Source: Euglena gracilis
Lineage: Eukaryota
DNA length: 64,000 bases
Assembly (NCBI GenBank): GCA_039621445.1
Contig: CP154954.1
Coordinates: 8,992,634 to 9,056,633 of the forward strand
Reading direction: 5' to 3'
The notes under the pieces were generated by a model, which saw nothing but the letters and a program-made list of their open reading frames with translations, was not told the DNA's origin and ran no database searches. Positions 21,501 through 56,505 of this stretch are shown here, piece by piece (position 1 is the stretch's first letter; each line of letters begins with the position of its first letter). The position numbers and the translations under genes are program-made.

Positions 21501-21631
21501 AACAAGAAACACCGCATCCGCATCCAACATCCAGCAGCATCGCCCAAGCCACATCCACATCCGTGCCTCCAGACTCAGTGACGCCAGAAGCAAAAGAAGA
21601 GAAGCACCAGCAGAGCCGCGGACGCGCGCTC

Positions 21632-22231: not shown

Positions 22232-25200
22232 CAAGGCACAGGACCACAAGCAGCAACCGAAGCAGAAGGAGCAGTGTCCAACAGCAAAGTGCAAGAGGTG
22301 ACCATCAAGCCGTGGCACGTAAAGCCGGCCCGCTTTCGAGTGGGCAGGATGCAAAGGAGAGGAGGCGGATGCCAGCTGCTGCTGGAAGTGACCGTGGAAG
22401 CCAATGGTGAGTGCTACCAAGCAAAAGCGCTCATCGACACCGGAGCCCAGACGTCTCTCTGCCGGAGGGACCTGCTGCCAGAAGCCTGCTTCACGCAGTC
22501 CAGCAAGCCGCTGCTGCTCAAGACAGTGAGTGGCGAAGAGCTCAACGGAGGGAAGAACGAGGCCACCCTCACATCTCCTTCGAGGCAAGGAGTGAAGAAG
22601 GCGTGCCAGTGGGCAGCCAGTGGAGCAGCACCGTCACCGCACACGACGGGGACATCGGCTGCGACCTCATCCTCGGATATCCGTGGTTGAAGGTCAATCG
22701 CCTCGACGTGCAGCCGTGGAGGGATGCACTCCAGCTGCATGATCCGCCACGGTGGGTGTTGTGGGCGCAAAAGAACAGCACCGCCCAAGGACAAGGAAGA
22801 TCGACAGCAGTGGTCACCCAGCAAGAGCCGCAACCACCCCCAGCATCCTCAACCCAACATCCTCTCCAGCAACCCCTGTCATCAACGGCAACACAACATC
22901 AAGAGGAAGAAGAGTGTCCGTGGGAAGAAGAAGAAGATGTGGAGGAGCAAATGCTGGCATTGGTGCAGAAGATGCGGATGTGCATTCCCGGAGAGATCCA
23001 TGAAGCCGAGGAGGATGAAGGTGCGTCGGATGAGGAGATCTCCGACAACGAGGCACTCCAGGAAGCAGCAAGGCACATCCTCCAAGTGCAGGGCGAGCAG
23101 GTGGAAATCAGAGGCGTGGTGCAGTCAGACGACGAGCATCCAGATCCACTGGCATCCAAGCTCCGGCAAGAAATCCTGGATGAATACGCAGGACGCGTCT
23201 TCCGGGAAAGAGTGTGGCCAAATCCCCCAGCAAGAGGGACGCACGGCAAGGCCGTGCTCAGGCTGAAGCCAGGTGCAGTGCCAGTGGTGGGCAGAGTGAT
23301 CCACCTGAGAGGAGAAAGGCATGATGCCCTGAGGGAAATGGAGGTAGAGTGCCGGAAGGACGGCAAGCTGGAACCCGGGAGGGGACCGTGGAGAGCAGCC
23401 GCCTTCCCAATAAAAAAGAAAAGCGGGAAGTGGAGACTGGTGTGCGATTACGCGCTCACCAACAAGCAGCTGCAGCCGGACAGCTACCCGCTGCCCCTCA
23501 CCGAGGAGATCGTGGCCGAGCAAGCAAGATGTGAGCTGTTCAGCACAGTGGACCTCCGGGATGCCTTCCATCAAGTCGCCCTTGACGCCGAGTCCCGGCC
23601 AATCACCAACATCCAAATGCCGGGCGGCCTGTGGCAGTGGACTGTGGTCCCACAAGGGATCAATGTGGGCCCGGCACTGCTGCAACGGGACATCGATGCG
23701 ACGTGTGCCGGACTGCAAAGGCACTCAAGGCCGTACTTTGATGACATCATCATCTGCACCAAAAGAAAAGTCGGCCAATCGGAAGAAGACTTCCTGAAGG
23801 CCCATGCCGCAGATGTCCGGGAGACGCTGGCAGCGCTCGAGCGCGACAAGTGGGTCTCGGACCCCAAGAAGGTGAAGCTGTTCATGCGCCGAGTGGAGTT
23901 TGTCGGCCATGTGCTGGGAGGAGGAAGAAGGTCACCAGCCCCAGGGAAGCTGGCAGCTGTCCAGAAGTGGGAGTTGCCCAAGAACGTCTCCAGCCTCCGG
24001 GCATTTTTGGGGCTGTGCAATTATTACAGCGGATACGTGCGAATGTTCGCCGAATATGCGGCACCGCTGCAGGAAAAGCTGAAGTTGCCCCGGGAGCTCG
24101 CCAAAGCAGGCAGCAAACACCCGGTGACATGGACCAAGGAGGAAGAGAAGGCATTCGAGCGCCTGAAGCAGGCACTCGTGGCGGACCTCGAGCTGTACCA
24201 CATGGACCCCACCAAGCCGTTTGTCCTTCGGACAGATGCATCGGACTATGCGGTGGGTGCGGCGCTGGAGCAGTTCCCACTGGTGGAAGGACTCCCGTCC
24301 CTCGCGGACATCAAGCCAGGTGCCTCCATCCCCGTGGCCTTCATGAGCCGCAAGCTCACCGATGGCCAACGGCAGAAGTGGGACACCAGGGACAAGGAGA
24401 CGTATGCAATCGTCTCCGCCCTGGACAAGTGGGCGCCGTACATTCTGGACAACGAGGTGCTGGTGCTGACAGACCACAAGAGCCTACAAGGGTGGTACAA
24501 AGAGCATGTCGCAGGAGTCGGCCCACAAGGCCGCCGAGCAAGGTGGCATGCAAAGCTCAACAACTTCCGGCTGGAAGTCATCCATGTGCCAGGCCAAGCA
24601 AACACCATCGGAGATGCGCTCTCAAGATGGGCATATCCCGCCAGCCAAGGCTTCAAGGACATCACCTGGCATGGCACCGATCAAGACACGAAAGAAATGC
24701 AAAAGCAAATCCAGAAGGAGAAGGAAGAGGAGAGATCGTGTCCAAAGGCCACTCACCCAATCGACACAGCCACCGAAGAAAAGCAAGTATGCATCATACG
24801 ACTCAAGCACAAAACCACCGAGAACACCGAAGTGGCAGTGACCACCCGAGCACAGATGAAAAAGAACCAGGCAGCACCAACAGCCAAGGGGTCCACCGAC
24901 ATGGAGACGCCAAGCCCAGCACATCAAGGCACAGCAAGACCCACCAGACCCACCAGAGAAGCCAGCAGCATGCCAAAGAAAAACGAAAAGCCAGCAGTCC
25001 CACAGACCAGCAGCAAATCAGCCAAGGACTCAGTGGAGGACGAGGAGGACGTGGTGGAAATCACAGCACCCACAGCAGAAACACCCAAGGAAAAGGATGC
25101 CACAACATCAACCGCCGACCCAACAACCTCATCACCCCATCAACATCCCGACACCTCTATCATGCAGCCGCAACCTCCGTCTTCCAGCATCCCAGCACCC

Positions 25201-27759
25201 TTACCATCCTCATCATCACCCGACATCCCAACATCCTCCCCAACCACATCTGCCCCTGATCATCCCATCACCGACCCCGCAGACGCCGAGGAGGACATCG
25301 ACATCTACACCATGGACTGGGGACCGCACTACGAGAAGTGCCCCAGATGGCAAACCGTGTGGCACGACACCAAGATCGGAGACCCGTGGCCCAAGGGCTA
25401 CCGGGTTGAACACAAGAGGCTCCTGAAGGATGGGGTCTGGTGCGTGCCAACGGGCCTGGTGGGCAAGGTCCTCAGAGCACAGCATGCCCAAACGGGCCAT
25501 TGGGCAGGCGAGATGCTGATGAAAGAGGCTCACCGTTTCTTCCAGTTCGCCGACGAGGAGGAGGCAAAGAAGCTGGCCGAGAGGATGCAGAAAATCTGCA
25601 GCTACTGCCAAGCAGAACCCACACCAAAAAAAAAAACAAACCACAAACAACAAAAAAAAAAAAAAAACCACATCTCCCCTTTCCTCTTCCACAATGGAAC
25701 ACCCCCACCAGCCGCTGCACCTGAAGGTGACACCGACACCGGTGCCGCCCCACATCATGACCAGCGTCTGCATCGACCTGTTTGTGATGCCCGAGGTGGA
25801 GTTCGAGGGCAAGCTGTTCAATGTCGTCGCGGGCTGCGTCGACAGACACAGCGGCTGGGTGGTGGCCACGGCACACCACACGAGGGGGTTGACGGCAGCC
25901 AAGGTCGCCAAGGCGATGTACCGCAAGTGGTGGTCGCCCCATGGGATCCCAAGTGTGATCACCTCGGACAGGGGGCCCCACTTCGCAGGAGCGTGGTGGC
26001 GAACGATGTGTGCCCTGCAAGGCGTGCGGCATGCTTACTCCCAAGCACACCACCACCCCGCCAACGGCAGAGCAGAGCAGATGGGGGCACAACTGCAGAA
26101 GCAGCTGCGGCACATCCACGAGGAGAAAGGAATTCCGTGGGTGGAAGCACTCCCCATCGCTGTCCAACGCCTCAACGACAAAGAAGGACCAAGCGGGCTG
26201 TCACCATATGAAGTGCTCTATGGAAGGCACCGGCCGTATGCTGGTGTCCCCTACGAGCCACCCACCAAGGCCGAAGATGCAGTCAGCTTCTTCGAGCGGC
26301 AGAAGTTGGTGGACAAGAAAGTCGCAGACACCGTGAACCAGCTGCACCATAAAAAGACCGAGCAGTTGAACAAGCGACGCAAGGAGCTGCCACCACTGCA
26401 AGTGGGCAGCAAGGCGTGGTACCTGCGGCCAAGGGGCAGGCCAGGGGAGAAGCTGGAGAGCTACTGGCTGGGCCCATGCCGCGTGATGGAGAGGAGGAGT
26501 GAGCACGGCTACGTGGTGGAGCTGCAGGAAGGAAGGATGCAAGAAGCACACCGGTGCCAGCTGAAGGCGTACACAGAGGGCGATGAAGAGCTCGGATCAC
26601 CGGTGAAGCTATTCCACTTCAAGCAGGCCCGGTCAGATCCTCCAACCGGGATCGATGAGTGGAACGTCGAAAAAGTGGTGACCCACCGAAGAACGCCAGG
26701 AGGAGAGTTGGAGTTCAAGGTGCAGTGGGAAGGTTCCACCGAACTCACCTGGGAACCACTGCACCATTTCTTCCACAGCTACAGTCAGCCCATCGTTGAT
26801 TACTTCCAGAAGAAGAACCTGAAGGAGGATGTCATGGCTCATCTGGCCAAACACCCAACAGAGGTGTCCAGGGTGTGGCTGTCAGCAGTAGAAGGAGGAC
26901 CGAGGCAAGACAAGAAGTGGCCACTTGAGTGGGAAGAGCCCCCCACTGAGTGGACATGGGAGGAGAAGGAGGCGAACCAGCAGCTGTGAGGGGCAGAAGC
27001 CCCCAGAACCCCAGCGACGGGGCCGCCAGCAAGAGGAGAGACAGCAAAACCGCAGAGACAAAAACACCCCACCAGCACAAGCGGAAAATGGCGAAGAGCC
27101 ACCACAGCACCCAACGAGAAACGGGAGAGACCGACACCAGCCGAGGGAACAGCAAGCCAGGAAGGGGAGAGCCCCAAAAACGCCCAAGCCCACGCAGGCC
27201 AAAAGAGAGGCCCACCATAGGCGCCCGGTCGGGTCCACCTGGCCTAGTCAACGGCAGAAGCGGCAACCTCAACATAGCTCCCACCTCCAACAGCACCCTC
27301 AGCATCTGCCCCCAACCTCTCCCCACAACCCATACATCAGCTCCGTACCCCAGTGCCACCCCACTCCCGCAGCCCCGCAGATCCCCTCACCTCAGCCTCC
27401 GACCCACCGATACGCCTCCAACCGCACCGCAGCACCCCGACCCTTCACCCCACAGCACCGTCCGAACACGTGCCCCCATGGCATGTCCCACCCCCATGCA
27501 CGGTACCATGCGACCCAACGCAGCCGTGTGTGCCCGTGTGGCACCGAGCCCGAGCCTGCCCCACCCAGGTCTGACGGTTCGTACCCAGGCTTCCCAGTGA
27601 CCCGTCCCTCGCATCCCAGGCGGGTAGGGGGCCCACCACCGGAGGGACCGGCCCTAAAGGCCCAGCCGGCCCACGGTGCGACCTGGCGGACCGGACCCAG
27701 CCGGCCGCCGCCCAACAGGCCCCGCGACCCCAGCCCGACGGGGGGGAGGGGGGAAGCGG

Positions 27760-30360: not shown

Positions 30361-32423
30361 CCTCCGGCTCCGATCACGCCCACGCCATTGCCGCCCCATG
30401 TGATGTGTTCGGTGAGTGTGGATCTGTTCCACATGCCGGAGGTGGAGGTGGAGGGCGGCAGGCTGGTGAATGTGTTCGCAGCATGCATCGATCGGCACTC
30501 CGGCTGGGCGATCGCGACCGTGCACCACACCCGCGGGCTAACGGCGGAGGCGGCGGCGAAGGCGATGTTTGAGCAGTCGACGCAGTTCGGCGTGCCAAGC
30601 GTTATCACGTCGGACCGGGGCCCCCACTTCGTGGGGGCCTGGTGGAGCGCAATATGCGCAAGACTGGGGGTGCGCCATGCCTTCTCGCAAGCATACCACC
30701 ACGAAGGCAACGCCCGTGAGGAGGTCCTCGGCGCGCAGATCCAGAAGCGGCTGAGGAAGATGAAGGCGGCGGATGGCGTGGCGTGGCCGGACGCGCGCTG
30801 CCGCGGGCCCTGCGGACCCTGCACGACAGTGCTGGGCCAAGCGGCCTGAGCCCCTTCCAGGTGCTCTTCGGCCACGAGCGGTGGTATGGCGTGGTGCCGT
30901 ACCAGCCGCACACGCGGGCCGAGGACGCGGTGGCCTTCTTCGAGCGCATGCAGGACATCGATCATCGTGTCGTGAAGATCTTGAACGCGGAGCACGCCAA
31001 GACAGCCGAGACGGTCAACAAGCGGAGAAAGGAGCTGCCGGAGCTGGACATCAACGACAAGGTCTGGTATCTCCGCCAGCGCACCCGCACCGGCGAGAAG
31101 CTGGAGACGTACTGGATCGGGCCGTGCGTGGTGGCAGAGCGCACCAGTGAGATCACGTACGTGCTCCAGATGGAAGACGACCGGAAGCAGGTGGCCCACC
31201 GATCCCAAATCAAGAGCTACCGCCACGACCCAGCGCTCATGGGGCCACGGCTCCGCCTCTTCCACTTCCGCCAGTCCAGGCCGGATGAGGGTTCCCGGGT
31301 GGACGAGTGGGAGGTGAAGGCGGTGGTCACCCACAGGTGCGATGCCAACGGCGACCTCGAGTTCCTGGTCAAGTGGCTGGGGTATGAGGAGAAGACGTGG
31401 GAGCCGCTGCGGCACTTCTTCCACCGGTACGCCTCCCTCATCGTGTCGCACTTCGTCGAACACGACATAAAGGAGGACATCATGAAGTACCTCTCGAGGT
31501 TCCCGGAGGAAGCCCACATCGCCATCTGCCACGCCGTGGAGATCGAGATGGAGAAGGATAAGGAGTTTGGGCAGTCCTGGGAGGAGCCACCAGAGGAGTG
31601 GATGTGGCAGGACACCGACGACGGCGATGTACGTCGAGAAGGTGATGATTCTGGAGACGATGATGAAGGTGATGGAGGAGACGAAGGAGATCGAGACCAA
31701 GAAGACGGAGGAGACGCTGGCCCGGCGGGTCCCCAACAAGCGGCCCACCCCAGGTACCCGGTCAGGGTCCACCGGCAGCCCGCGAGCTGCGAGCGCCCCG
31801 CCTCCGTGCGATCCGCGTCTGCAAGGGATGCGCTCTCCCGCGCTTGCCTTGCCCCAGCCCCACCGTCCACCACCCCATCACTCCCCCCATGTCCCAGGCG
31901 TACCCACCCCGCATTTCAGGCGTGCCTCAGAGACCCGGTCCCCGAGTCTCCCCTGCCCCCACGGGTAGAGGTCGCCGCCCCCGCGTGTCGACCCGCAGGG
32001 ACGCCCCAGCTCGGGATCCCCCCTCCCACCAGGGGGCCCCGTTCCCGAGCACTCCCATTACCCGTCCCTGCGGCGAGGGGGCACCACCACCGGAGGCGTG
32101 CCCCTGCATGGCCACGGTGCGACCCGGCCCTTCCTTCCCAACAGGGAGGCCACCCCTGCCCCCTACCCACACCCCATGGGGAAATGGAAAAGGCCTGCCG
32201 TCAAACTGGGATTTTCTCCATGGTGGTCGTTTTCCAGTTCATCTTTCTGTTCCTTCCCATCGCCTTTGACGTTCAGGACAGGCGGCTGGCAGCGCGCGTG
32301 AAGGAGCTGAGCAGATGATCATGCTGTGCTGTCGTCGTGAGGACATGCTGTGACGTCGGCGGCAGCTGGCTCACCCTCTGCTGACCTGATGGATACTGCT
32401 GCTTCTCACCCACCAACCCAACC
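30361..32423 (+). repeat. Near-identical duplicate of A1 13399-15457 (integrase, chromodomain, 3' region)
   Basis: Same sequence by eye except two 2-nt insertions (~30795, ~31885). Confidence 0.95.
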
Positions 32424-34978
32424 TCTTACACTGGTGTGCCACCCCTCCCTTCTCTTCCCCAACCAAGGCTGAGCCACGGTGAGCCCGGCCGAAGCCGAGC
32501 CAGGAGAAGGGAGACCGGGAGAAAGCGCAGAGAGGACAGAGAGAGAGGAGAGGAGAGGAGACCGACGAAGCACGGGGGCGAAAGCCCCGGGGATAGGCGA
32601 GCAAAGAAGGAGAGGAAAGGAGAAAGAAAGGGGACCCAAGGGGGGAAACCCAACCGACCACGGGGGCAAAGGGGGCCCAGAAGGGAACCAGGGAAGACCA
32701 AAGGACCCTGGGGCGTCCCAGAGGGCGCCGCCGAAGACCACCCGGGGGGGGGGGGGGCAAGCACGGCCCAGGGGGGCCGCGAAAAAAAAAGCGGCCAGGG
32801 GGCCGCGCCCAGACACCGGGGGGGGGAGACCCAAGAGCGGCCCCGGGAGGGCCGCACACGACCCAGGGGGGGGGGAACCAAAAAAAAGCGGCCCAGGGGG
32901 ACCGCCCAGACCCCGGGGGGGGGGGGGGGCGAAGAACGGCCCAGGGGGGCCGCTCAGGACCACCCGAGGTGGGGGCACACACCGCCCAGGGGCGCCGGCA
33001 AAGAAAAAGGCGGCCAGGGGGCGGCCCAGACAGACCCCAGGGGGGCGGGCCGAAAAGCGGCCCAGGCGGGGCCGCCCAGACCCGATGGGGGGGGGGGGCG
33101 AAGAACAGCCCAGGGGGGCCACCAGACCCGGGGGGGGACCAAAAAAAGCGGCCCAGGGTGGCCACCCAGGCCCCCAGGGGGAGGGGGCGCCGAAAAGCGA
33201 CCCAGTCGGGGCCGCCCAGACCCCAGGGGGGGGGGGGGGGAAAAGAACGGCCCAGGGGGGCCGCCCAAGAACACCCGGGGGGGGGGCACGCACGGCCCAG
33301 GGGGGCCGGCGAAAAAAAAAAGCGGCCAGGGGGGCGCGCCCAGACTCCGGGGGGGGGGGCCAAGAGCGGCCCAGGGCGGGCCGCCCACGACCCAGGGGGG
33401 GGAAGGAACCAGAAAAAAGCGGCCCAGGGGGCCACCCTGGGCCCCAGGGGGGGGGGCAGAAAAGTGACCCGGGGGGGCGGCCAGACCCCAGGGGGGGGGG
33501 GGGGGGGCGAAGAACGGCCCAGGTGGGCCGCCAAAGAACACCTGGAGGGGGGGCACGCACGACCCAGGGGGGCCGGCAAAAAAAAAGCAGCCAGGGGGCC
33601 GCCCAGACCGACCCCGGGCGGGGGGACCCAAGAGCTGCCCAGGGGTGGCCGCCCGCGACCCGACAGGGAGGGGGCTAAAAGCGGCCCGGGGGGGCCGCCC
33701 AGACCCCAAGGGGGGGGGGGGGGCGCCGAAGAACGGCCCAGGGTGGCCGCCCAAGACCACCCGGGGGGGTGGCACGCACGGCCCAGGGGGGCCGGCGAAA
33801 AAAAAGGCCAGGGGCCGCGCCCAGACCCCAGAGGGGGGGACCCAAGGGCGGCCCAGGGGGGGGCCGCCCACGACCCAGGGTGGGGGAACCAAAAAAAGCG
33901 GCACAGGGGGGCCACCCAGGACCCCAGGGGGGGGGGGCGCCGAAAAGCGGCCCAGGGTGGCCGCCCAGAACCCTGGGGGGGGGGGGCCGAAAAGCGGACA
34001 GGGGGACCGCCAGCCCAAAGGGGGGGGGAGCAACCGAACCCAGACAAGAGCACCCACCAAGGAGAGCCAGGGAGAGCCAAAGCCCGAGCCCAGCCAATTC
34101 CTGAGGCCAGCCCGCAAGGCCGGCCAACGTCAGCAGCGACGTCCACCGAACGCCTGCGGAGAACGGCCAGGGATTGGCTGGCGTCCACCCCCACCCGGAC
34201 CACAGGAGCCCGCCCGCAGCCGGGACGCCAGGCAGCGGCGCAACGAAGGACCGGGGAGCCCCGGCCAGGCTCCTGTGGCAGGGGGGCGAGAAAGGCATCG
34301 GCCAGGCCCGGCAGCCGGAGGCAAGGCCGAGGAAGGGGAGAGTTGGCGGACCGGCCGCTGCACCTTACGTTGCCACTACAACAGCCTGCTGTTGTATGTA
34401 GCGAACCATTGCGCTAATTCAGCATTAAAATAGCGCAAAACGCACCTCTAACTGTTCTGTTTTTCACTGCAGGCTCCCTCTTCTGTACCTATGGTTTCAA
34501 TTCAAGATTGTGCCTGCTGAATCAAGACCAAGGTCACATTATATCAATTTTCAAGGAATTTCAAGGGAATTCAAAGAAAGGCGCTGGAGCCAAGAAAGTG
34601 CAAAAGTTGAAGAAAGTCGAAAATTCCAAGGGCGGAGCAAGCAAAATATTACAAAAGATTGGCTATCTGCTTGCGCAGGAGAGCAGTACATCCCAAAAGG
34701 TGTTGGTGCCGGGGTACCAGAAGCCTAGGGTAGGGCAATCAGGCCTTTTACTAAAACCCCCCCCACTGCCGGAAGGGACGCCAAGCCGGACTCCCCCTCC
34801 AACCACTCCCCAAAAAGGAGGGCCTTCGGTCCCCGGGAAAAAATCCTACGTGGGAAGGGGAGTATCCCGAACCTACCCCTCTTCCAGAGCCCATCGCGCC
34901 TAGCCCGCACCCCGCCGGTACCCCCTCACGGACCCCCGGGACTGAAGGCTGGGCAAAACCAACACCCTTCGGGAAACT
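32180..34978 (+). repeat. Probable 3' LTR of A1 (~2.8 kb) with GC-rich, T-poor tandem array (32700-34050)
   Basis: Same architecture as the A2 LTR: T-poor repeats, gtagcg..cgcta hairpin, pyrimidine tract-GCAGGCTCCC, A-rich block, GGGAAACT end. Confidence 0.6.
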
Positions 34979-36308
34979 GCACTTGCACCCTGACTCCCAA
35001 CCATACACAGCATTCCTGGCATCCAAAGGTGAGTACCAATGGACGGTAGTCCCCATTGGTGTTAAGAATGGCCCAGCCATGTTTCAACACATTATTCAAT
35101 GGGTTCTACGCGACTTACCGTTTGCCATTGTGTACATTTCTTTCGCGAACTTATAAAATTTTGCGTCCACATCCGCAGCAATGGACAGCGGAAAGCCGCT
35201 ACGAGCAAACCCTAAGCCATTAAGAAATGGACCCCTGAGGTAATCAAAAAGGATTACTCAGGTCAAAGGATTTTTGAAATTAGCCCAATACTACGCGATA
35301 TATATGAGGGACTTCCCGAAAAACGCGGTGCCTCTCACCAAACAGCTCGAAAACCGGGATGTCGACAACACCAAAGTCATTTGGGATGACCAAATGCGCG
35401 AGGCCCTTGAGAAAAAAAAGGTTTTGCTTTTGGAGAACGTTGTCCTCGAAATCGCCGACCAGTACAAACCAATGTTCTGGAAGTCGACAGCAGCGATTAC
35501 GCTGTTGGCGGAGTTATTAGCCAGCAGAACGCGGCGAATGAACTCCGACCTGTGGCCTTCTTCAGCAGAAAGCTACAGGGCGACGACGGTAATGGTCAAG
35601 TCAAGTGGAGTATACGCGAGAAGGAAACCTACGCAATCGTGCTTATACTCCAGAAATTCCGAAGCTGGGTCGCCAGCAGCCTCGTCCAGATCCTCGTCAA
35701 GACTGATCATGCGAGTCTCTAACACTGGTACACCGAGGATTTGAACAAGTCCATGTCATCGGTCGGAAGGCGACGCAGATGGCATGAGTTCTTTAGTTAA
35801 TTCAACCTTGTGGTTATTTATACCCCTGGTCACACACATAAAGTAGCAGATCCGCTCAGTCGGGCCCCTTGGTATCAACCTGGATGAGGGAGACGCGTTT
35901 TTTCATGGAAGTCAGGAAGCTGACGAATACGCACATCGAAACGACGCTGCGGACAACCTTTTGTATTATTTTTCCTTTTCACAACTATTCCTGGTCGCAC
36001 CAGTGCGCGGAAGGCGCCGACGTGGAAGCACGTCCGGACCCAGCGTACGCGCACGGAGTCCCCTTCCTTACTGTTCTTTCGCGAATGGGATTATAGTCGT
36101 GATCCGGTGTATGACAGCATTGTCTCCAGACTTCGTAATGGCGAAGTGCTGGAGAATTACACTCTTTCACCTTTACGGCTGGTTTTTCGCAATGAATCTG
36201 GTTACAAATATTGTATTCCCCAGGGCCTGGTTGATGATGTTATTTTGTGCTATCACAACCAGAATCACCCTGGGGCCCCCAAACTTCTTTCGTTGGTGGG
36301 CCGCAGGT
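34979..36308 (+). pseudogene. Gypsy family B fragment (B3): RT C-terminus, RNase H, start of integrase; probable target of A1
   Basis: HLHPDSQPYTAF..KNGPAMFQ, RPVAFFSRKL, homologous to 40335-41815; stops and deletions. Confidence 0.88.
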
Positions 36309-37579
36309 TGTAGGTGGTGTGGGCCACACAACTCCCACAACTCCCTGGTGGCTGGCCCCTGGCGCGTGCAGGACCTGCCACTGGCTGGTATCCATCAATT
36401 CACCCAGGGGGCCTGGCACCCACCTGCGACTGTCCTTGTCACTTTTCATGGTAATCCGACTTCCCAAATCCCAGCGCAGGCACAAATCAACATACTTCCC
36501 AGAACTGAACAACCAACGTCAAACTGAACATGATGCTTGCAACTGCAAACACAAGCACAGACAGAATTTTGCCGAATTCCTAATTCTTCTGCTGGAATCT
36601 TAATCCCTTTCCCAGCGCCCACACTCCCCTCCTTAAAAAGCTGCCCGGGGCAAGTAAACCTGCCTTCGGCAAAAAAGCGCGGGAACAAAAAAACATTTTT
36701 TTTGTTCACGAACACAAAATTGACTCTTTCTTTCTGTCTGTCCGTTTCTTTTTTTGTCGGGGGCGGGGCGGGGTTCGAAGGCCAACCCTCAGGGGGGTCG
36801 GTCTCCTACAGCAGCAGGGGGGAGCAGCAGGCACCCGCACAACCTTGGACCGTTCTGGCAGGGGTTCCCCCCCAGAACAGTCCAAAGATACCCCTTGGGC
36901 CGTCTTCTCTGGAACTCTTTTTTGCCCGTCCATAGATAGGGGTCCAGGGGCTGGTGGGGGTCCTGGGAAGGGGGTTCGCAGGAGGCAGGGGGTTACGAGG
37001 GGGAGGGCTTCGGCCACAGGCCCAGGAGGGGGACCCATCCCACGCCGTCCCGTCGTGCTTCGGCCACAATGCCTGAGGGCTTCGGCCCAGGCCTACGGGA
37101 GGGGGACCAAGCCCACACCATCCCAGGCAGGGCTTCGGCCACAGCTGGTGAGGGCTTCGGCCCAGGGCATGCAGGAGGGGACCCAGCCCACATCATCCCA
37201 GGCAGGGCTTCTGCCTCAGCCCCTCGGGGCCTCCTTTGCCTTCCGCCTGCGCTCCTTCCTTATCCTTCCTCTCGACTTCTCCGGCGAACCTCCGCCCTCG
37301 CCATGCCCCACCGGGGCCCAATGCCCAATTCCGTCATCACCATCTCCAGAATGCCCACCTCGACCATCTGCATGTCTGGAATGTCCCTCTCGACCATCTT
37401 GATTCATCTCGATTCGGGCATTACCACCTCTGACATGACCATCTCTGGCACGCACTTCTCCGACATCTCCTTCAACACCATTCACATATCTTGCATTTAC
37501 ATCCTTGTCATTCCTGTCTCTGGCATTTCAATCCTTGGCATGCACATCTCTGACATCTCTGACATCTCTGACATCTCTC

Positions 37580-38410
37580 ACGGGGCTGTTGTCAGCAGTC
37601 ATAATTTTGATGGGGTACTTGGATTTCACCAAGAGGGAGTTGGGAATGAATCCCGTTCGAAAGAGAAGGGGGATTCACCACCCTGTGTCGACCAAAATTT
37701 TGCATTTGGTGGAAACATTTTGTGTTTGGATTTCCGCTTGGACCAAAAGTTCCATGGGTGGTAGGCAAAGTGCAGGATCCGGTGTAAAATTGTTGTCTCT
37801 CCAACTATTCCAGGATCCCGTTCCTACTTTGCTCAGCATTCCAGGCAGAAATTTGGAGTGGGGGGTGGGGGACCCGGAATTTTTCCGGGTACGGACCAAA
37901 AATGCAGATGGGCAGGTCCTACTTCTGTCTGTTCATCAGCCCAGAGGTCCGTTCCCACAGACCTCGGGCTCCCCTACTCCAAGTCCGATTCAGCACTTCG
38001 GCTGTTTATCGTTTTCTTGTGTGAGTAGATAGCGCGCAATGCGCGGACTGCATTGTGGTCATCCTCCAATGAGGATTCGGAGTTCTCATCCCCCTCCCTG
38101 CCCGAAGCCGGGGTGCCCTCCTCTAAAGAGGAGATTTTGAACCGGACCTTGTGTTTTCTATTGTGTTTTGTATAATTGTGGTGACGTTGGTTCGGGCGGG
38201 GAGAGCGAGAACGGCAACATTTGGAGGAGTGGTGGTTGTGTGATCCACAAAGGGAACACTTTTGTCGATTTTGTGACTTTTGTCGGTTTTGTGATGGTCT
38301 TTCACCCCTTGGAGGCCTTGGTGAACGGAATCCCGTTCGACCATGGGTACCCGGAGTTACGAATTGGGTCTGACGTAGTTTTGGGTTTTCCATTCTTGCG
38401 TCAGAACCGC
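37580..38410 (-). pseudogene. Inverted LTR-retrotransposon fragment: Gag C-terminus with CCHC knuckle, then protease
   Basis: CSLCGSHNHHSSKC; TAG + hairpin; ELLVQAEI..KILVDTG..IKIMTADNSP. Confidence 0.75.
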
Positions 38411-39370
38411 CTTGTTGTGGACTGCCCCTCCCTCGGTTTGCGCAATACTACACGCACACAGCTCACTGCACCGAATTTCTCCCCGAAGGCACCTTCCCAG
38501 ATGTCCTCCCGCCTGGCCACAACGTTTTCTACAACCGAAAACACCGTTTCCTACACCAGGGGTAAAGAGAAAGCTGCCCCCCCCCCCTACCCACTACACT
38601 TGTACTGCACGTTTCCCATTCGGTAGGGAAAGCGAGTAGCTTAACCCCCCACGTTCCACTTGGTTCCAAGGTGAAAGCCCAAAGGCCTGAAGAAATTTCG
38701 GTGTCGAGTAGCCGCCCAGCTGCACAACTTTTACGTTTTCCACCAGGTGTGTCGATTTCGAACACCCCTGTACACCCCCCAGCAGCTACAACTTCCAACA
38801 CCCCTATGCACACACTGCACATGACTGACATGCACTACCAGACCGACACTTCCTACCAATGCGCACATTGCCGGAGAATTTCCACACAACCTGATTTCGA
38901 CTGTGGATGTATTTTTGAACCTCCCAAACTAATCGCTTTACTCAACAACCAGAGTACACTTGGTACCGGAACCTTTACCGAGGGTACCCTGCCCGCTGAA
39001 CGAGAACACAACACACCGGGTTGTTACCCGTTGTGTGTTGAAGTACATCCACAATTGGACAAAGGCGGAATCGCGTCCCTGTTCGGAATCGAGAGAATCG
39101 CGCTGGAAGATCTCCAATGGCAGAAAGCCAATCTCTCTGACCCCTAATGGCAGAATGCCAACCCCTCCAATGTCCCTGCATACAAGTGGCAGAATGGCAA
39201 ACGACATTTGTCCTTTATACAATACACGTCATACACTAGTCACAATGCCTGATGAAGTGTCTTCGGACACACCGCATTACCGATGTGGCTCGGTAAACTG
39301 TGTTTCAGCCCTCCACAGGACTGAAACCGCAACAGTTTTCGCGAACCGCATCTGGAATGCGTTCCATTTT

Positions 39371-39775
39371 GGACAATGTCGCATTTTGGAAACTTGGTTT
39401 TCCAAAATCGCGCAAATCGCGAAGCCGATAGACCTACAATTGGAGATTTATGTGTTCTCATCCAAAGCACATTCTCGTTTACCCAACAACTTGTCAAGCC
39501 ATACAAATGTGTTTGACAAGCTTTGGGGTGATGTGGTCCTGTGGCTACACCCACCTCTAAAACTTATCTCTTTTGTTGTTGACAAGATCCTTCGGGATCA
39601 AGCACGCGGTGTGCTACTCATTCCTAAAAATCCCGAAGCGGAATGTTTCCAACAACTGACGTATGTCACTTTTCAGTGGTGGGATTTACCGAACGACACC
39701 CCTTTGTTTGAAGATTTTTGCGGTGTCATGTTACCACCATTGAAAGAAATCATTTTTCGTGTTTGTTTCTTTGAT
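39371..39775 (+). pseudogene. Dam/DIRS-MT-like amino-(N6A/N4C) methyltransferase domain before RT
   Basis: IYVFSS..H..NVFDKLW..LWLHPPLKLISFVVDKILRDQARGVLLIP..WWDLPNDTPLF fits the DLFAS..N..DA..W..NPPW.LI..VL.K..ILI.P pattern; aligns with 59900-60290. Confidence 0.72.
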
Positions 39776-39858
39776 TTGATGCATTCGGAACGGTTGACCA
39801 CACTGACATATTCCTACGGGATAAAGGTCAGAATGACCAAACATACCAACTACCCGCA

Positions 39859-42800
39859 GTGATAGAAAGCGGTGGTCAACATCCCAAATCACAAGAACTA
39901 AGTACAAAGGTCAACCGCGAATTCAGTGATGTTTTAGAACATCCTATCTATCCCCATGACATAGATCCTGCAATTCGCGGACCTTTTGGTGTCTTTAAAA
40001 TAGAACTTAAAGAAGGTGCACAGCCCATGCACCGAAAATTCTTTCGCTGTACAGGCGAAAGAGAACAAGCTCTCAATACAATGATCGAAAAACTGATTGA
40101 ACGAAAATGGATCATACCCTCCAAAAGCGAGTGGTCCTCACAAGGTTTCGTGGTACCCAAGCCTCCCGATGCTTCTGGAGAGAAGAAGTGGAGACTTGTG
40201 CTGGGTTACCGATACTTGAACTCGCAGACAAAAGACGATCCATTTCCGTTACCACTTATCGAAGACCTGATTACAAAACAAGCGGAAAGCCGCCTGTGGT
40301 TGATTTTCGACTTAGAGGATGGTTTTCACCAGATGCACTTACATCCTGACTCACAACCATACACCGCATTTGTAACCTCCCGCGGAGTTTACCAATGGAC
40401 GGCGTTACCAACGGGTCTTAAGAATGGCCCAACCATGTTCCAAAGAATGATACAATGGACTTTACGAGACTTACCGTTTGCAATGGTATATAGATGACGT
40501 GCTCATAGGCACACCTCCTCCACTTACGATTTCGGGTAGTGATATCCTTGATATTCACTACCGCGATATACGTTCCGTACGGACAACGTTTCAAAAACAT
40601 TTGCTTTTTGTCAAAGCTGCGAAAATGCATTTATTCCGCGAAACGATAAATTTTTGAGGACACATTCTTAATAACGGACAAAGGAGAGCATCTCCGAGCA
40701 AACTCGAAGCTATAAAGAAGTGGACACCTGAAAACATCAAGACAATCACCCATTTAAAAAGATTCTTGGGTTCGGCGCAGTATTACGCGATTTACATGAA
40801 CGATTTCACGAAAATCGCGGTACCACTGACGCGACAACTCAAGAATCGCGCTCCTGACAATACAAAGATACAATGGGATGATACAGCGAGAACCGCTAAG
40901 GACAATTGAACAATTGATTTTGGACAACGTTGTACTTGACATTGCCGACCCGTACAAACCATACGTACTGGAGGTCGACAGCAGCGACTATGCCGTCGGC
41001 GGTGTGTTGAGTCAACATAACTCTTCCAATGAACTGCGCCCTGTAGCATTCTTCAGCAGAAAGCTACAAGGTAAAGACGGAAAGGACAAGTCAAATGGAG
41101 CATACGAGAAAAGGAGACGTACGCCATTGTCCTTATCCTACAAAAATTCCGCAGTTGGGTCGCCAGTTCACTCGTACTGATACTAGAGTTGACAGTCCAT
41201 GAGTCTCTCCAACACTGGTACAAAGAAGACTTGAACAAAGCCATGTCCTCAGATGGCCGAAGATGCCGTTGGCACGAATTTTTGAGTCAATACAACCTGG
41301 TGGTAGTTTACACACCACGTCATACTCGAAAAGTCGCTGACCCACTTTCACGTGCACCCTGGCATTACCCTGGTAACCCTGACGAGGGTGATGCCACGTT
41401 CCACGGAAGTCGCGAAGTCGACGAATACGCAAGGCGCGCAGACGCCGCTGACAACCTGCTTGACAACTTTCCTGTTTCGCGGATTTGGCGGCGGATGCTG
41501 ATAGCCCCCGTACGGGGAAAACGACAACGCGGCAGAGTGCCGGACCCCGCCAAGTTACGCGATCAGAATATCCATCCCCTCTCTTTTTTCGTGAATGGGA
41601 TTATTCCAAGGACGACTTTTACAATGATGTCGTACAAAGATTACGTAATGGTGAATTGGTTGAGAATTATACCTTATCACCTTTACGTTTAATTTTCGGG
41701 AATGATACTGGATATAAATACTGCATACCCTGTGACTTGGTTGATGACGAATTTTTATGTTATCACAACCAAGGTCACCCCGGGGCCCCCAAACTTCCTT
41801 CTTTGGTGGGTCGCAGATACTGTAAAACCCTGACCGAAAAGGATTTGTACAAGCGCAGTTTACAAATTTCGCAACGGTGCCAGATTTGTCAAGCTGTGAA
41901 ACCGCGCAGAGGTACCCCCCCTGGTACGTTGGATTTCTTCCCCGTACCAAATGACATTTTTACTTCCCTCGGCATGGATTTTCTGGAACTTGAACCTTGC
42001 AAAGGAACAGATCACAAAATTTACGATCACGTTCTTGTTGTCGTCTGTCGGCTGAGTGGGTACATAGTAGCCATTCCATGCCAGAAAGCAGGGTTGACAG
42101 CACAAGTTTTGGCACGAACGTTTTTGGAAAGATGCATTTGCCTCATGGGTTTACCGAATGAAATCGTGAGTGATCAAGACCATTTGTCTACTTCTCGATT
42201 TTTTACAACTCTTTGCGATTTACTCGGAATTGAGCAGCATTATTCTATTATTTTCTAAGATCGTCCAAAAGGAAATGGTCGCGCTGAAGCGGCAGTGAAA
42301 GGTGTAGTCAACATGCTACGACTCTCACTGGCCGAATCGCACAATGCCTGGCTACAAGTACTACCCTGGAGTTTATTTCATATCAACACTTTACCGGGTC
42401 TGATATTACAATACTCACCGTATAAAATCGTCTTCGGACGAGACCCCCCAGCCATGGGCGACATCCCGTCAGAACGACCCGCTCGTTCCAGCGTGAGTTG
42501 CAAAACATTGTTCTCTGAAGTAGAATCATTGCGCACGGATGTGCAAAAGCGCGTAGTCGCTATACACTTACAAAAACAAAAAATAATTCTTACAAGATTA
42601 CAAATCACCGGTATACAACCCAGGTGACCGCGTGTGGGTTCGGAAGAGTAGAACCCGCATGCAATCCACGAAGTTGGACCCCCTCTGGATCGGACCATGT
42701 GAGATCCTTGATCGGTTGGGTACAAGTGGGCGCTATAAAGTCGCTTTACCCAACGGTGTCGAGGATGTGCACATGGATGACTTCAAACCATACCTGACTC

Positions 42801-43006
42801 CACCAAACGGTAAAGCAATACCCTGCCTCTACTTCAAACCACGGTCAAAACTGCCTGAAACAGACGATTTCGTCGTTGACAAAATCCTCGACCACAAAGT
42901 AGACAGGTGTGTACATTACTGGAAGGTGAGCTGGAAAGGCTATGGTCCCAAAGAGGACACTTGGGAACCTGCAACTAGTTTTGTTCATTACATCCAACAG
43001 GACTGA
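39859..43006 (+). pseudogene. pol: B2 pol: RT, RNase H, integrase, chromodomain
   Basis: KWRLVLGYRYLN, FDLEDGFHQM, GLKNGPTMFQR, Y(I)DD hit by a frameshift at ~40490, EVDSSDYAVGGVL, H..GH..CQICQ, GMDF/VSDQD, chromodomain 42870-43000. Confidence 0.93.
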
Positions 43007-43377
43007 AAATTATGGAACAAACGAAATAGCATAGACATTTCTGTAAATACCTTCTAAGAGAGGATGTACAAAGAGGTACAAGATTTGTCCATAGCGTGGA
43101 CTTTCGACAAAATGTATAATGGGCGGCTGCCAAAATGTACAACGGGCGGATGCCAAACCATTTTGTCCCTAGCGAAGGACTTTTCGTCAAAGGAATATGG
43201 TTTTGAGCTATACATTTTTTCACTTGGTGCTACAATTTTGATTTTACAATTAGTGCAAACATACAAATATTTTTGTGTGTGCGCACATTTGCTGGCATGC
43301 GTCCAATGTTACCGTACAATGCTTTTTTCTCTGTTTCCCCACAGCTCAGCACTTGCTACTATCTTCTCTTTTTTAAG

Positions 43378-46300
43378 ATGGACGCTGGAGGAAGGGGACC
43401 TGGTCACCCATCCTCCCAACCGTATGTTCCCCCTGGACAACCTCCTACGGGTGGACCCCCTCACCCACAACCTCCTTCGGGAGGACGAGGACTTGCACTC
43501 CCTCGTGGAGGGCAAGTCCCCATGCGGCATGTACAAGCTGCTTCGGCAGCAAGGCCCGTAGTGGCAGCTCCTCAGGTACAAGCTGCTTCGGCAGCAAGGC
43601 CCGTAGTGGCAAATTCCCCTGTGACTCAACGTGCGGCTCCGCATGTTGCTCCATAACAAACTACACTTGCAGGCTTACAACATCAAACAATGATTCCACA
43701 ACAAACGGAATCTGCCTATGAACAGTTTGCGGTGCCGCAACCGCGGCCTCCAAGGAGATACGATCCGGCCAGTAGCAGTAGCCAACGCGCTGCTTTTGCG
43801 GTGGTCCTGTGATGCCTCGGTTCCCCAAGTACATTGGTGAACTGACAACGGCATCAACAGATACAATTCGTAACGCTCTGCGCATGTGCACAGAGGACAG
43901 ACCGGGTCCCTTCATCTGAGTGATGTGGGATTCGTACTGCCGACAACTGCTTGCAATCGCCAACAAACCTATCGCCACCTGGGACAGGTGGTCCCAGAGT
44001 ACGATAGCAGGTAGAATCTTCTTCCAACCCGGAGAATCCGTTTTTCCAGACAATGTAAATCTCCGGGATCTGGGAGTCCTGGTCCCGTCTGTGCTGCGCA
44101 GAGTGCATCCTGTGGGTGCTTACGCGGAACACATGCGCCGCTATACTCGTGGACTCACAGAAAGTGAGATGGGTGGTGTCCAAATGCAAGAACCAGTATA
44201 CTTACCACAACAACGTTTTTCCTCTCCCCCACGCATGCCGCTTGCACGGAACTGGGAGGCTAGTATGCCATCACAATACGCTATGGAGGCCGAAGAGCCA
44301 TACGATGAAAATTTTGCCGACGAGATGGCCGAAGAGCCTTATGACGAGTATACAACGGCAGAACCTGAGCCGGAGTATACCATGGAAACAGACGAACCAC
44401 CTCAAGCACCCCAACCACCACAACCCGTACACACTCAACCATCTGTACAATCTCAACCACAGCCACCGACAACCCCCGCCGTACCGCTGCCGGAACCGAC
44501 AGCGATACGAGTTGTCGGAGAAAATCCCCTGCGTCCCGTAGAGGAAACTATGAACGAGTGCCACAATCTCTGGATTTCGCTTACACAACCAAAGGCGAAC
44601 AGTACCTTCCCCTCGACAAAATTTACGAACTTGGATCCCATTTGGGAGCCATCAATGTAAAGGGAGTGATAATGGATGGCATTGGTCCAAACTCCAAAAT
44701 TTTGGGTATACCCACCTGGGCACTACCCGAAGTTTTGCGTGTGGATGCACCACCACATCAACCTGGTCCAACGGAACAACTCGCTTCGGCGTCGAATCTT
44801 GTGCCGCCGGTATCTCAACCTACTCCGGCACCACAAACAAAGCCTGTACAAGCAGTTTCGACTGCACGTCAAATATCTTCTCAGACCAACCTGTACCTAT
44901 ACAAAGAACAGGACCCCCTGCTCAAGCCACGGGGTCGGCACGTACAAGAGCACCCGCACAATCTACAATTCCTCTTCGAGCACCTCCTGTTACGACACCT
45001 TCACAACGGGTTCGGCTGGACAAACACAACCACCTATTGAACCGGGACAACCTTTCTCGGGTCAATCCAGGTTTGAGTCGCCAGCACAACGCGCCACGTA
45101 CAAGGAAGCCCTACAACATTTGACAGCCCCAGCGAAACCATACAACGTTGACGCGCGCAAACGTCCGCGTGGACCGGAGTTTGCAACACCACCACAAACA
45201 CGTCCAACGCCAGACACACAACGTGGTCGCTTGGACGACAATCCACAAAGCGCGCAGGCGCAACGTGATCGTCAGGAAAGCGATCACCCGCCGATCCCGC
45301 CCAACGTACAACGACTTTTTACGAAATGTATCACGAAATGTGTCCAGACAAACCGTCCGATGACATTGATGGACATTACACCGCTGGTGTAACCGTTACA
45401 ATGTGAAGAAAAACACAAGCATTCCGATAAGACGGTGCATACCGTTGGAATGAACAAGAGCGCGAAGCCGCAAAAGGACAGAAAGGCCAGAAAGGCAAAG
45501 GAAAGAGCGAAGGCTCACAACCGCGTTACGACCTGGACGTACAATTCATGATTGACCATCTGTTCTGCATCTCAGACTGATGTGATAAATCATGCACGAG
45601 TACTTGAGGAACAACACCCTTGGGTTATTGCTCCTGAAGTACATCACCACATGGTCAAACTCTACAAGGAAAAAGCACGTGGCTTTTTCTTCGATGGTAC
45701 AATTTCGTGTTACGAAAACCAGGATGGCATCAACAAATTTCAGGGTTTCTGGCAACTACTTTTCTGGCTCGGATTCCATTGCTTGGACTTCGGTTCATTC
45801 GCAATGCCCGCGAGCAAGGCACGCTACTTGCCACATCCAAAACTACAATACGGATGGGAGTCATCCCTTGACACACTAAAGACAATGTTCGACAACATCC
45901 GCGAAATCGGACCACACGGCATACAATGGGAAGTATTCCCACTTCCAAAGGATATACAACTGGTGACACACGAAATGTTCTGTTACAACCACCAAATTTT
46001 CCTCAACGAACACTATGGCCCCCACTTCCAAGTGGTCGTCATCGACCTGACAGACCCACAAAGATTCGTCGTTTAGTGCGCACACTGCCTCCACAAGTTC
46101 CCGGTGGACTTCTGGGGCTTTGGGGTACGCGGTCGGACAACCGACGCCCAAACGCACCAAGGGCGCAGCCCCACCAACGAGAATTGGCGGAGGCCCAACA
46201 ACAACGAAGACTACTCGGACACATTTGCCACAATCCCCTCGAAGTTAGGGAAATCGGATACGCCAGACGAAACCACCGACAAATGCTTCTGCACATGCAG

Positions 46301-46561
46301 ACGTTCCATTGGAGAGCATGGGTGTGCTATGCACTGGAAATCTACAACTTATTCAACGCGAAACAACCACTCCCGCAAGAATACCTCCCTCTTCCACCTG
46401 CATGGGACGAAGACGGAAAACGGAAGTACATCAAACGCCTGTTTGGCGAAACCCTCCGAAGAGAGGACTTTGCCCCATTTTTCAAGGGCAAACGTACAAA
46501 AAAGGATGGGCTGGCCATCCCAATACTGGACTGGCTTCCTCGCGGATCGGGAGGAAACTAA
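43378..46561 (+). pseudogene. B2 3' accessory ORF (fragmented); conserved core 45552-46400
   Basis: ATG after a pyrimidine tract-AG; Pro-rich N-terminus; core homologous to 5989-7257, with a stop at 46074 and a frameshift. Confidence 0.65.
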
Positions 46562-47636
46562 TTTGTCGGATGGCAAAACTTCCGTCTGCGACCCCGTATA
46601 AAACTCCCTGAACCCCAGCCGGCGGAGTCCGAGGCAGCACAGTCTACATTTGAACAACCTCCAACGGCTGCATCATGTACAACGACAACGGCCAAAGCAG
46701 CAGCGAAGCCTGCAACCAAACGTTCGGAAGAATGTTTGACACAACCTCCACCTACACCTACAATGTCTGTGGAACACACTCCCGTACACTCTTCAGACTC
46801 TTCGTCCGTTTCCTCTTCTGCGTCATCCAGCGATGAGGAAATGGAAGAAGGGACAGACAATGAACACAGTACACGCTCCGTCTCCTCCGCATCTGTGGAG
46901 TCTGAACCCGGAGATGCCGACGTACAACATGCTCTACGGGCCGAAGCGCCAGCTACAATGCCTGCTCAGACAAGACCACAAACCCCATAACCAGACGTGG
47001 AACCCGACGCACTTACAGAACTTCCAGTGGCCGAAGAGCCTACAGCACCTACGATGGCCGAAGTGTCTGTAGACTCTACAATGGCCGCGGTGCCTTCGTC
47101 ACTACGCCACTTCGGACGCTTCCGAGGACACGTTCTGCAGTGCGTCCGACTTGTGGTGGTATGAGTATGAAGTCGTCTGGATCTGGATTTCCACGGCTGT
47201 GAATACCGAGGGGGTATTCTCGACGTATTTGTTCACGTTCTGCACGTAGTGCTTCCATTTCTTCGTCAGTGAGTTCTCGGTCACCTTCCGCACGTGCGGA
47301 GGTGGGTGGAAGCGTGTCTGACGATAGCCTCGATGGTTGCAATGGTGCGATCGAGGTCTTCCTCTTCAACGCGAAGTCCCCGTGACACGGGATTTGGCGA
47401 AGAACCCGCACAAGAAGCTACGGCTTCCACCACAGCACTGACAGCAGACGCTGCTGGTTCTGCTCCAGACGTCCAAACACCCGTAGTGTTACACACACCT
47501 GAACAGGTGGTACCGACAGCTCCTGACTACCACATACCACCGCACCAACTGCGAAACCTGCTCCAAAATCGCCTGCAGAACGCACCCTCCGCCACAGCGG
47601 AAAGAGAAAGGCAGTAAGCCTAAGGCTAAACTACAG

Positions 47637-55613: not shown

Positions 55614-56505
55614 TATGCTGCCCATTCGGCGTCTGTGGTGTTTGTGTTCCCTTGCTATTGTTGTTGTAGTTGTTGTTGTTTGTTTAACGGAGCAGGTGCT
55701 TGGGCTGCAGGAGGTGGAAGACCTGTAGTAGCGGAGCACTTCTCCTTCTTATCCAGGGGTTTGTTCTTGAGGTAGCCGTACTGCCGCTCCAGGGACAGGG
55801 ACTTGTCGTCCCGCAGGCAGTCAAACGAGTTGCGTCGCCGCTTGCCATACCGGATGAGTGGTGCACTGGCCGCCATGGACCCTTGGCTGGCGGCGTGCGC
55901 ATGGCGAGTTGGTTTTCAAAGAAAAAAACGGAGGATGTACACAAATTGAATTAATTATTTGCCAGTTCCCTCACAGCGTCCGGGATAAAATAACGCCAAA
56001 AAAATATTTAAATTCACTTTTGCCCTTTATCACACCGGGCATTTTACTTTGGTCCAAGCAGAAACAATTCCGAGTGGCCTTTAATACACACGCACACAAT
56101 GCATTCAGCAATACCCTCCTGGGGTGATTGTCTTCTGGGTCTCAACCAATGGATTCACTTAACACCTGTGTGACCCATCCCACAAGGGGGGGGGGGTTCG
56201 AGAGTGCGTGGGTGGGTTGGGGTCCTGGGACCCCCCCCCAAAAAAAATCCAGCCAAAATCGGCAGAAAACGGTGAAAAATTTTCCGGGTAAAAACCTGAC
56301 CCATGGCGTGCCCCACCCCTGGTTGACCCCCCCCCAGGGGGTCGTGCGTGGGTAGGTTTGGGCCCGGGAAACAGTGTCCCTCCCCGGGGAGTCACTATAT
56401 GAATCTATGGACTAAACAAACACACTTCAACTGACCCGTGTATGTCCCCTACCAACTTCGCAATTGACCAAAACCATGAAAAACATAAAGGTCGATTTTT
56501 GTGGG

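Follow-up and report, generated by a model that had tools for sequence, protein, structure and literature searches.

Introduction

Retrotransposons that encode cytosine methyltransferases have been described, and the relevant portions of one account note Dam-like domains in DIRS elements only (PMC5890265); the DNMT elements reported from Symbiodinium in 2018 are of LINE and DIRS types (PMC5890265). Dam-like domains inside Ty3/Gypsy LTR elements, the DAM-LTRs, were reported as new by Fernandez-Moreno et al. (bioRxiv 10.64898/2026.05.21.726589, May 2026). The main text of that preprint gives green algae, an ochrophyte, ichthyosporeans, Pyropia and Euglena as the lineages that have DAM-LTRs, and infers that their domain stems from a DIRS-type DAM. 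Asn-Pro-Pro followed by an aromatic residue is reported there as conserved in DAM-TEs, whose catalytic pocket is argued to be conserved, yet the authors' own E. coli assays gave no 6mA (bioRxiv 10.64898/2026.05.21.726589). Neither a dinoflagellate DAM element nor a true non-LTR DAM element is named in its main text. In the literature, judged by titles and abstract openings, we found neither a Dam-carrying non-LTR element nor a DAM released by a 2A peptide.

Here we describe a DAM domain in copy B2 of a Gypsy family (family B), which lies in a 64,000-nucleotide stretch of Euglena gracilis DNA, called the window below. Like the published DAM-LTRs, some of which have a chromodomain, B2 carries its Dam-like domain inside a Ty3/Gypsy-type element. 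It differs from those described in the preprint's main text in motif IV, which is NPP plus an aromatic residue in the published elements, HPPL in family B and mostly NPP plus an aliphatic residue in the B2 clade, and also in a Cys4 motif that precedes the DAM in family B. DIRS1-type elements have a homologous Dam-like domain, the 'MT', and the DIRS order RT-RNase H-Dam is shown by one relative found here (P0127). Unlike in DIRS, the DAM of B2 stands before the RT and is accompanied by a DDE integrase and a chromodomain; B2 has neither the tyrosine recombinase nor the RT-RNase H-MT order of DIRS, and the ORFs scanned gave no Phage_integrase match. The original prediction regarded this domain type as foreign to integrase-encoding Gypsy elements, a view outdated by the five lineages of DAM-LTRs in the preprint's main text (bioRxiv 10.64898/2026.05.21.726589). 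A Gypsy element with a Dam domain is therefore of a kind already known, and what goes beyond the main text of the preprint is the degenerate motif IV and, in one copy, a DAM joined to a non-LTR RT.

Results

Architecture and decay of the B2 element

The window has a GC content of 56% and consists almost wholly of retrotransposon remains. The order of domains in B2 is protease, Cys4 motif, DAM, RT, RNase H, integrase and chromodomain. A C-terminal aspartic protease remnant (38345-38587(+)) was located by tblastn of P0010 (aa 174-266) and has no Pfam match. It is followed by the Cys4 motif CAHCRRISTQPDFDCGC (38860-38910(+)), the DAM domain (39335-39793(+)) and an RT that is frame-shifted relative to the DAM (39775-40497(+); Pfam RVT_1, E 4.3e-18; 92% identity to P0133 aa 422-660). 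Further downstream are an RNase H in two frames (40830-41692(+); Pfam RT_RNaseH and RT_RNaseH_2), an integrase with its zinc-binding part and DDE core (41464-42258(+); Pfam rve, E 9.3e-7; Integrase_H2C2, E 0.007) and the integrase C-terminal SH3 with a chromodomain (42587-43006(+); Pfam Chromo, E 1e-9; SH3_Tf2-1, E 6.3e-8). These Pfam matches to RT, RNase H, rve and Chromo bear out the placement of the domain directly before the RT of an integrase-encoding Gypsy element. The DDE integrase combined with a chromodomain (rve, Integrase_H2C2, SH3_Tf2-1, Chromo) is of chromovirus type.

An intact relative is P0133 ('jgi', hypothetical protein; 1208 aa), which was found by a word-index search and is 90% identical to the B2 DAM. 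Its single ORF runs from the region upstream of the DAM through the DAM, RT and RNase H to the integrase zinc finger. DAM and Gypsy-type RT thus belong to one polyprotein, continuous in P0133 and collinear in B2 with a frame change at 39775. P0133 is collinear with 38501-42129 of the window, over which B2 has five frame changes, near 38590, 39197, 39775, 40490 and 41550. In-frame stops of B2 lie at 39145, 40655, 40907 and beyond. An alternative indel state occurs at 39201, 40492 and 42578 in the DNA contigs of one run. The N-terminal part of a family-B-like protease is inverted (37582-37842(-); tblastn of P0010 aa 54-140, E 9e-16, frame -2). The B2 copy is dead, as its 5' part is inverted and its frame changes at least five times and is interrupted by stops. 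B2 is a dead, rearranged chromovirus-like Gypsy copy of a family whose Pol has the DAM between protease and RT.

A gag/protease N-terminal part related to family B, on the opposite strand (37582-38447), adjoins B2 upstream, which suggests an inversion or a head-to-head fragment. Within it, the ORF 37974-38447(-), without a Pfam match, contains a CX2CX4HX4C-like string. A tandem 75-nt unit, in two copies that are 80% identical, lies at 37057-37206(+). No direct repeat of at least 40 nt was found on either side of B2 within 36300-47500, nor any blastn self-match that would mark flanking LTRs; since the 5' part of B2 is inverted or truncated, the absence of LTRs says little on the family.

Situated between protease and DAM, the Cys4 motif has the form CX2CX10CXC. 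Six relatives of at least 400 aa (P0006, P0007, P0010, P0011, P0057 and P0133) conserve it, and it is absent from the other long DAM proteins that were checked. The motif may form a zinc-binding module that is particular to the B2 clade.

Other long relatives are P0029, P0036 and P0087 (1448-1645 aa), with the order DAM-RT-RNase H-integrase; a protease is visible upstream in P0029, the one sequence read. The RT was of Gypsy type in all 11 relatives in which a DAM is followed by RVT_1. In P0106 Dam (E 5.6e-11) is joined to RVT_2, an RT of Copia type, and in P0115 Dam is positioned before a retropepsin. Dam modules may accordingly occur in further element types and positions, as these two sequences suggest.

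No other copy of the pre-RT region was found in the window, which contains two further family-B-like copies (3352-5217 and 34978-36306), both 5'-truncated. From a single DNA run, 23,745 short pieces of contigs fell on the 5.6-kb stretch at a likeness of at least 88%, a figure that is not a copy number; family B appears to be highly repeated. RNA runs gave 18 and 14 reads from about 12.9 million records each, and 123 reads came from a size-fractionated library. These reads are few, mostly less than 95% alike and only partly on the stretch, so they are too little to call B2 expressed. A metagenome scan with P0133 gave no match.

Homology and predicted fold of the DAM domain

The DAM domain is encoded by a single open frame of about 155 aa with zero stops. 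It lies in the ORF 38933-39862(+), which is 309 aa long and ends one frame off the RT. The strings quoted in the original prediction are present in the DNA, LWLHPPLKLISFVVDKILRDQARGVLLIP..WWDLPNDTPLFEDFCGVMLPP within this ORF and those of the non-LTR element at 60238-59888(-); the span first given to the domain, 39371-39775, lies inside it and is slightly narrower than the 39335-39793 determined here.

Using the 309-aa ORF as query, phmmer against 1.84 billion representatives found 130 homologs at E<=1e-3, of which 41 reached E<=1e-10 and one E<=1e-30. The matches of all 130 fall on aa ~132-287 of the ORF. All 130 were scanned with Pfam, and the Dam family PF05869 was matched at E<=0.01 by 86 of them (32/34 plus 54/96); among the other 44, many are short fragments that hold the C-terminal half only. 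The B2 DAM itself matched nothing in Pfam even at E<=10, and P0133 reached 19.6 bits with Pfam Dam, below the cut-off of 28.1, so membership in the Dam family is transitive. We built a family HMM from 43 full-length relatives of the B2 DAM, excluding the window sequence, and ran it on all 1511 six-frame ORFs of the window. It matched aa 135-287 of the B2 ORF at E 5.5e-44, and the B2 ORF and the non-LTR ORF described below were the sole window ORFs with E<1. P0083, a Dam-positive relative, matches annotated phage N6-adenine methyltransferases (488 phage records; 2e-3 in the ten matches listed). The family profile matched no chain among the PDB sequences. In the ESM Atlas the scores were just 0.82 and one cluster had 14% Dam members, which serves as a lead only.

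The similarity of the B2 DAM to PF05869 and to the eukaryotic retrotransposon DAM clade is thus found at profile level. Phage Dam proteins of PF05869 (e.g. the putative DNA N-6-adenine-methyltransferase of Escherichia phage atuna) resemble the B2 DAM in family, by profile, and in the class-I fold, and the order of motif-I-like strand and motif IV agrees between them. The B2 DAM differs from them in lacking a direct Pfam match, in its non-canonical motif IV and in being embedded in a polyprotein. The B2 DAM is a Dam/DIRS-MT-like domain, homologous to phage Dam PF05869 and to the DIRS 'MT'.

AlphaFold2, supplied with an alignment of the B2 window domain and 41 relatives, gave a model with a class-I methyltransferase fold (pLDDT 93.5, pTM 0.88). 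Foldseek against the PDB placed KsgA/DIMT1 and CAPAM at the top, with E no better than 4e-3. VIA-align, run against 48,161 chains, had CAPAM/PCIF1 (6irx) as best neighbour (Z 10.6, 135 residues aligned, rmsd 3.4), followed by METTL5-like, DIMT1/KsgA and Erm proteins at Z 8.2-9.7, with T4 Dam at Z 8.0 and E. coli Dam at Z 7.9; the stated background is Z 7-8, so values of 8-10 are only moderately higher. Ten of the 12 chains at Z>=8 are named adenine-N6 methyltransferases (CAPAM, DIMT1/KsgA, METTL5, Erm), and the remaining two are PH1948 and Ta1320, a putative RNA methyltransferase and a protein that has no name. CAPAM is an NPPF enzyme. It shares 9% identity with the B2 DAM, the likeness being one of fold only, and acts on RNA as an enzyme of 482 residues that has additional domains. 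A class-I Rossmann-like fold, as expected of the Dam family, is predicted for the B2 DAM, and the structural match supports the sequence evidence without proving it.

Catalytic motifs of the family-B DAM

N6-methyltransferases use the first residue of the motif IV tetrad to contact the amino group that is their target, and the aromatic one to stack on the flipped base. Motif IV of the B2 DAM is HPPL (39548-39559(+)), which replaces NPP plus an aromatic residue. The motif-I-like strand is EIYVFSS (39443-39463(+)), in which a near-invariant Asp has become Tyr. A near-invariant Trp has also been lost, to Cys; P0133 keeps both residues, and its strand reads EIDAFSS, with the D also in 38 of the 40 other aligned relatives.

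HPPL is common to the B2 copy and to the intact 1208-aa P0133, and it is thus a family-wide trait, not decay of the B2 copy. The original prediction had taken HPPL as non-canonical and the copy as possibly inactive. The copy is dead indeed, by its frame changes and stops, and HPPL is not its own lesion, being found in P0133 too. Among the homologs covering the site, NPPF is the commonest tetrad (38 rows), CPPF has 11 rows, about 17 have H first, and there are many others; the variants HPPF and HPPY are present among the relatives. The 12 non-window rows of the B2 clade have NPPI (four), NPPV (two), NPPL, YPPI, HPPL, NPHY, HPMF and HPPF, so the fourth residue is non-aromatic in nine of them. 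Since several of these rows are uninterrupted over 700-1200 aa, the change of the tetrad is not simply pseudogene drift.

An active N6-adenine methyltransferase (EC 2.1.1.72) is expected to show (D/N/S)PP(Y/F/W) in motif IV and an acidic residue in the motif-I-like strand (vDaFaS). At the first site both B2 and P0133 have HPPL; at the second B2 has Tyr, and P0133 keeps Asp. Because of HPPL in both, we do not class the DAM as an active N6-adenine methyltransferase. One reading, which we regard as rather unlikely though the strongest of the alternatives, takes the family-B DAM for an adenine methyltransferase that works in spite of HPPL; it would place 6mA on the cDNA or the RNA:DNA intermediate and lead to new insertions in permissive chromatin, as in the model of the preprint. 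It would fit with the DAM being kept in intact ORFs of several families and with P0133, which retains the fold and most near-invariant residues. The near-invariant Trp two residues before the tetrad is retained, as is Asp in P0133, which is compatible with an active enzyme, and the HPPF and HPPY relatives agree with it, as does the 6mA enrichment which the preprint reports in its main text on DAM-LTRs of other species (bioRxiv 10.64898/2026.05.21.726589). Against it speak the replacement of the Asn as well as of the aromatic residue in motif IV, and the heterologous assays of the preprint, which were without 6mA (bioRxiv 10.64898/2026.05.21.726589).

HPPL, with the mostly NPP-aliphatic motif IV of the clade, favours the loss of canonical N6-adenine transfer, and for family B we judge that this activity was somewhat more probably lost than kept. 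An analogy is offered by METTL14, whose motif IV is EPPL and which is an inactive binding partner. It has the N6-methyltransferase fold and a motif IV without the polar first and the aromatic last residue, and it is retained as a partner; its lineage is unrelated to the family-B DAM and the comparison is one of analogy only. With this parallel in mind, we lean towards a non-canonical or non-catalytic role for the DAM of the B2 clade.

A second DAM domain in a putative non-LTR element

The second DAM of the window lies 17 kb from B2, at the N-terminus of a non-LTR ORF (59888-60238(-)), and matches Pfam Dam at E 5e-6 with 26.7 bits, below the cut-off of 28.1. It has two frameshifts and lacks the NPP of motif IV. 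Its three pieces are 60238-60104, 60102-60001 and 59992-59888; the sequence reads VWMN, shifts frame to WHLLPQ, and the third piece is back in the first frame at NLFQLPTGTPLY. The family HMM matched the non-LTR ORF at E 2.5e-9 over profile positions 40-79, and the other two pieces are collinear. With X set at both breaks to allow read-through, the domain gave 67.6 bits and E 9.5e-20 over profile positions 40-149, the frames of this read-through having been picked after inspection. The 45-aa piece of this DAM found nothing in the protein index.

A 2A-like peptide, identified by motif only, stands between the DAM and the RT (59462-59485(-)) and reads GDIEENPG, followed by L and not by the canonical P. 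The remainder of the ORF (57791-59461(-)) contains the RT (Pfam RVT_1, E 6.5e-10, aa 586-784), for which the best BLASTP match among 11 tested Gypsy-type RVT_1 relatives had E 0.033. A canonical 2A motif, GDIESNPGP, was also seen at 63565-63591(+), in an open frame that runs off the end of the window.

The non-LTR ORF found nothing among the PDB sequences, and a metagenome scan with it gave a single match, of 49 aa, in L001. Its sole relative in the protein index is P0134. No endonuclease family was matched in the partner element (56.4-60.2 kb), where the ORF 56449-57909(-) has no Pfam match at E<=5. Located downstream of the RT, this ORF shows a Cys/His cluster (CCHC) and an RP..-(x)n-D.T.-like pattern of PD-(D/E)xK-like type; by eye, it may resemble an R2-type restriction-like endonuclease.

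The link between DAM and non-LTR element is seen in one degraded copy only, and the DAM might be a neighbouring fragment that stands before the RT in frame by accident. We hold this for rather unlikely, somewhat more so than a working family-B enzyme. It would account for the single copy, as neither the window nor the metagenome scan nor the protein index yielded a second one, and for P0134, which has the RT alone, without DAM and 2A. It is harder to reconcile with the two frameshifts inside the DAM, which cancel out, and with the open frame of 815 codons that holds the third piece of the DAM together with 2A-like peptide and RT.

Kinship of the two DAM domains

The original prediction had aligned the two DAM domains by eye. 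Plain BLASTP between them was not significant (E 0.14, LP.DTPL part only), and phmmer with the non-LTR read-through matched the B2 DAM at 17.3 bits (E 2.6e-5 in a set of 131 sequences). Together with the profile matches at E 2.5e-9 and 9.5e-20 given above, this upholds the homology; significant alignments, whose absence between the domains or to Dam profiles was to speak against it, were obtained at profile level. One of the strings compared was written with a bracketed PP after VWMN: VWMN is present, the PP is not in the DNA, and the strings are split over two frames.

The best match of the non-LTR DAM is P0083, with 62 bits, and its best matches are NPPF-type DAMs of other elements; by similarity to it, the domains of the B2 clade take places 28 to 96 among the 130. 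We constructed a careful tree of 45 rows, which were the two window rows, 12 relatives from the B2 clade, 18 sequences that best match the non-LTR DAM, and 13 others. In this tree the B2 clade comprises 13 rows with support 100/97, and a position of the non-LTR row inside it was rejected (AU p 0.004). The non-LTR row has a long branch and contains X, we selected the subset ourselves, and the group was named after the first tree had been seen. A quick tree of 86 rows also separated the two DAMs; their grouping was not rejected (AU p 0.92), a value that is uninformative because the constrained search beat the free tree.

A recent swap of the DAM between Gypsy family B and the non-LTR element within this genome would explain why both are found in one 64-kb window and would agree with the p of 0.92 of the quick test. 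We consider such a swap very unlikely in view of the 17.3 bits of the direct match, the low ranks of the B2-clade rows, the closeness of the non-LTR DAM to P0083 and other NPPF-type DAMs, and the AU test on the 45-row tree, with the limits just given. From these sequence comparisons we conclude that the two window DAMs are distant kin, most probably without recent exchange. The mobile methyltransferase module that had been postulated across LTR and non-LTR classes therefore stands only at the level of the family; a closer tie to the B2 clade does not, given ranks of 28-96 among 130 and an AU p of 0.004.

Other features of the window

Another Gypsy family, family A, has its RT, RNase H, integrase and chromodomain at 22411-27000. 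In 20093-22690(+), especially at ~21740-22282, C5-methyltransferase-like DLLSG, SPPC and ENP were seen by eye upstream of its protease. Pfam DNA_methylase matched this segment at a weak E of 0.092, and no match was found among the PDB sequences. At 32370-34430, on both strands, there is a stretch of about 2 kb of proline/glycine-rich low complexity that is open in six frames (ORFs of 320-680 aa); it is probably a simple repeat and not coding.

Discussion

The locus is, in our judgement, probably best explained as the DAM of a dead chromovirus-type DAM-LTR, with a role in the live family that is somewhat more likely non-canonical than not and with the DAM of the non-LTR element acquired separately. 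In live members Pol is a single frame that encodes protease, Cys4 motif, DAM, RT, RNase H, integrase and chromodomain. Selection would keep the DAM in the live family, because several families have it in intact ORFs of 700-1200 aa. On the replication intermediate it could bind nucleic acid or recruit partners, or its substrate could have changed. The two DAMs of the window would have been acquired separately out of a wider pool of retrotransposon DAMs.

Alternatively, a piece of a DIRS or other element could be nested in the Gypsy copy, which would make the DAM region a local chimera and no part of the Gypsy family. The inverted 5' part of the rearranged B2 and the lack of LTRs might recall this, but it is scarcely credible and was rejected. 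It is contradicted by P0133, which comes from another contig and, at 87-92% identity to B2, has upstream region, DAM and RT within an ORF without interruption, and by 11 further relatives with a DAM and then a Gypsy-type RT; the ORFs scanned contained no tyrosine recombinase. Chance resemblance of the DAM domains was likewise rejected.

Two further readings may be put forward as a tentative and rather unlikely proposal. The DAM of the B2 clade would be a pseudo-methyltransferase or a retargeted enzyme that successful chromoviruses keep for binding and not for catalysis of the Dam type. A third retrotransposon class would have taken up DAM as well, in the form of a non-LTR element from which it is released by a 2A skip as a separate N-terminal protein. 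Action of the B2-clade DAM on RNA might be envisaged, and is conceivable because the best matches of the predicted fold are RNA adenine methyltransferases.

Retrotransposons with DNA-modifying domains of their own show mobile elements engaging the host epigenome. If the C5-methyltransferase-like segment of family A is real, a Gypsy element with a C5-methyltransferase and a chromodomain lies next to a Gypsy element with a DAM, and one genome may host several separate methyltransferase captures. The window also hints that the same DAM module reached a non-LTR element. The altered tetrad in an otherwise intact relative bears on whether DAMs act as enzymes, and, if true, a pseudo- or retargeted DAM would explain why TE-encoded DAMs have so far lacked DNA 6mA activity.
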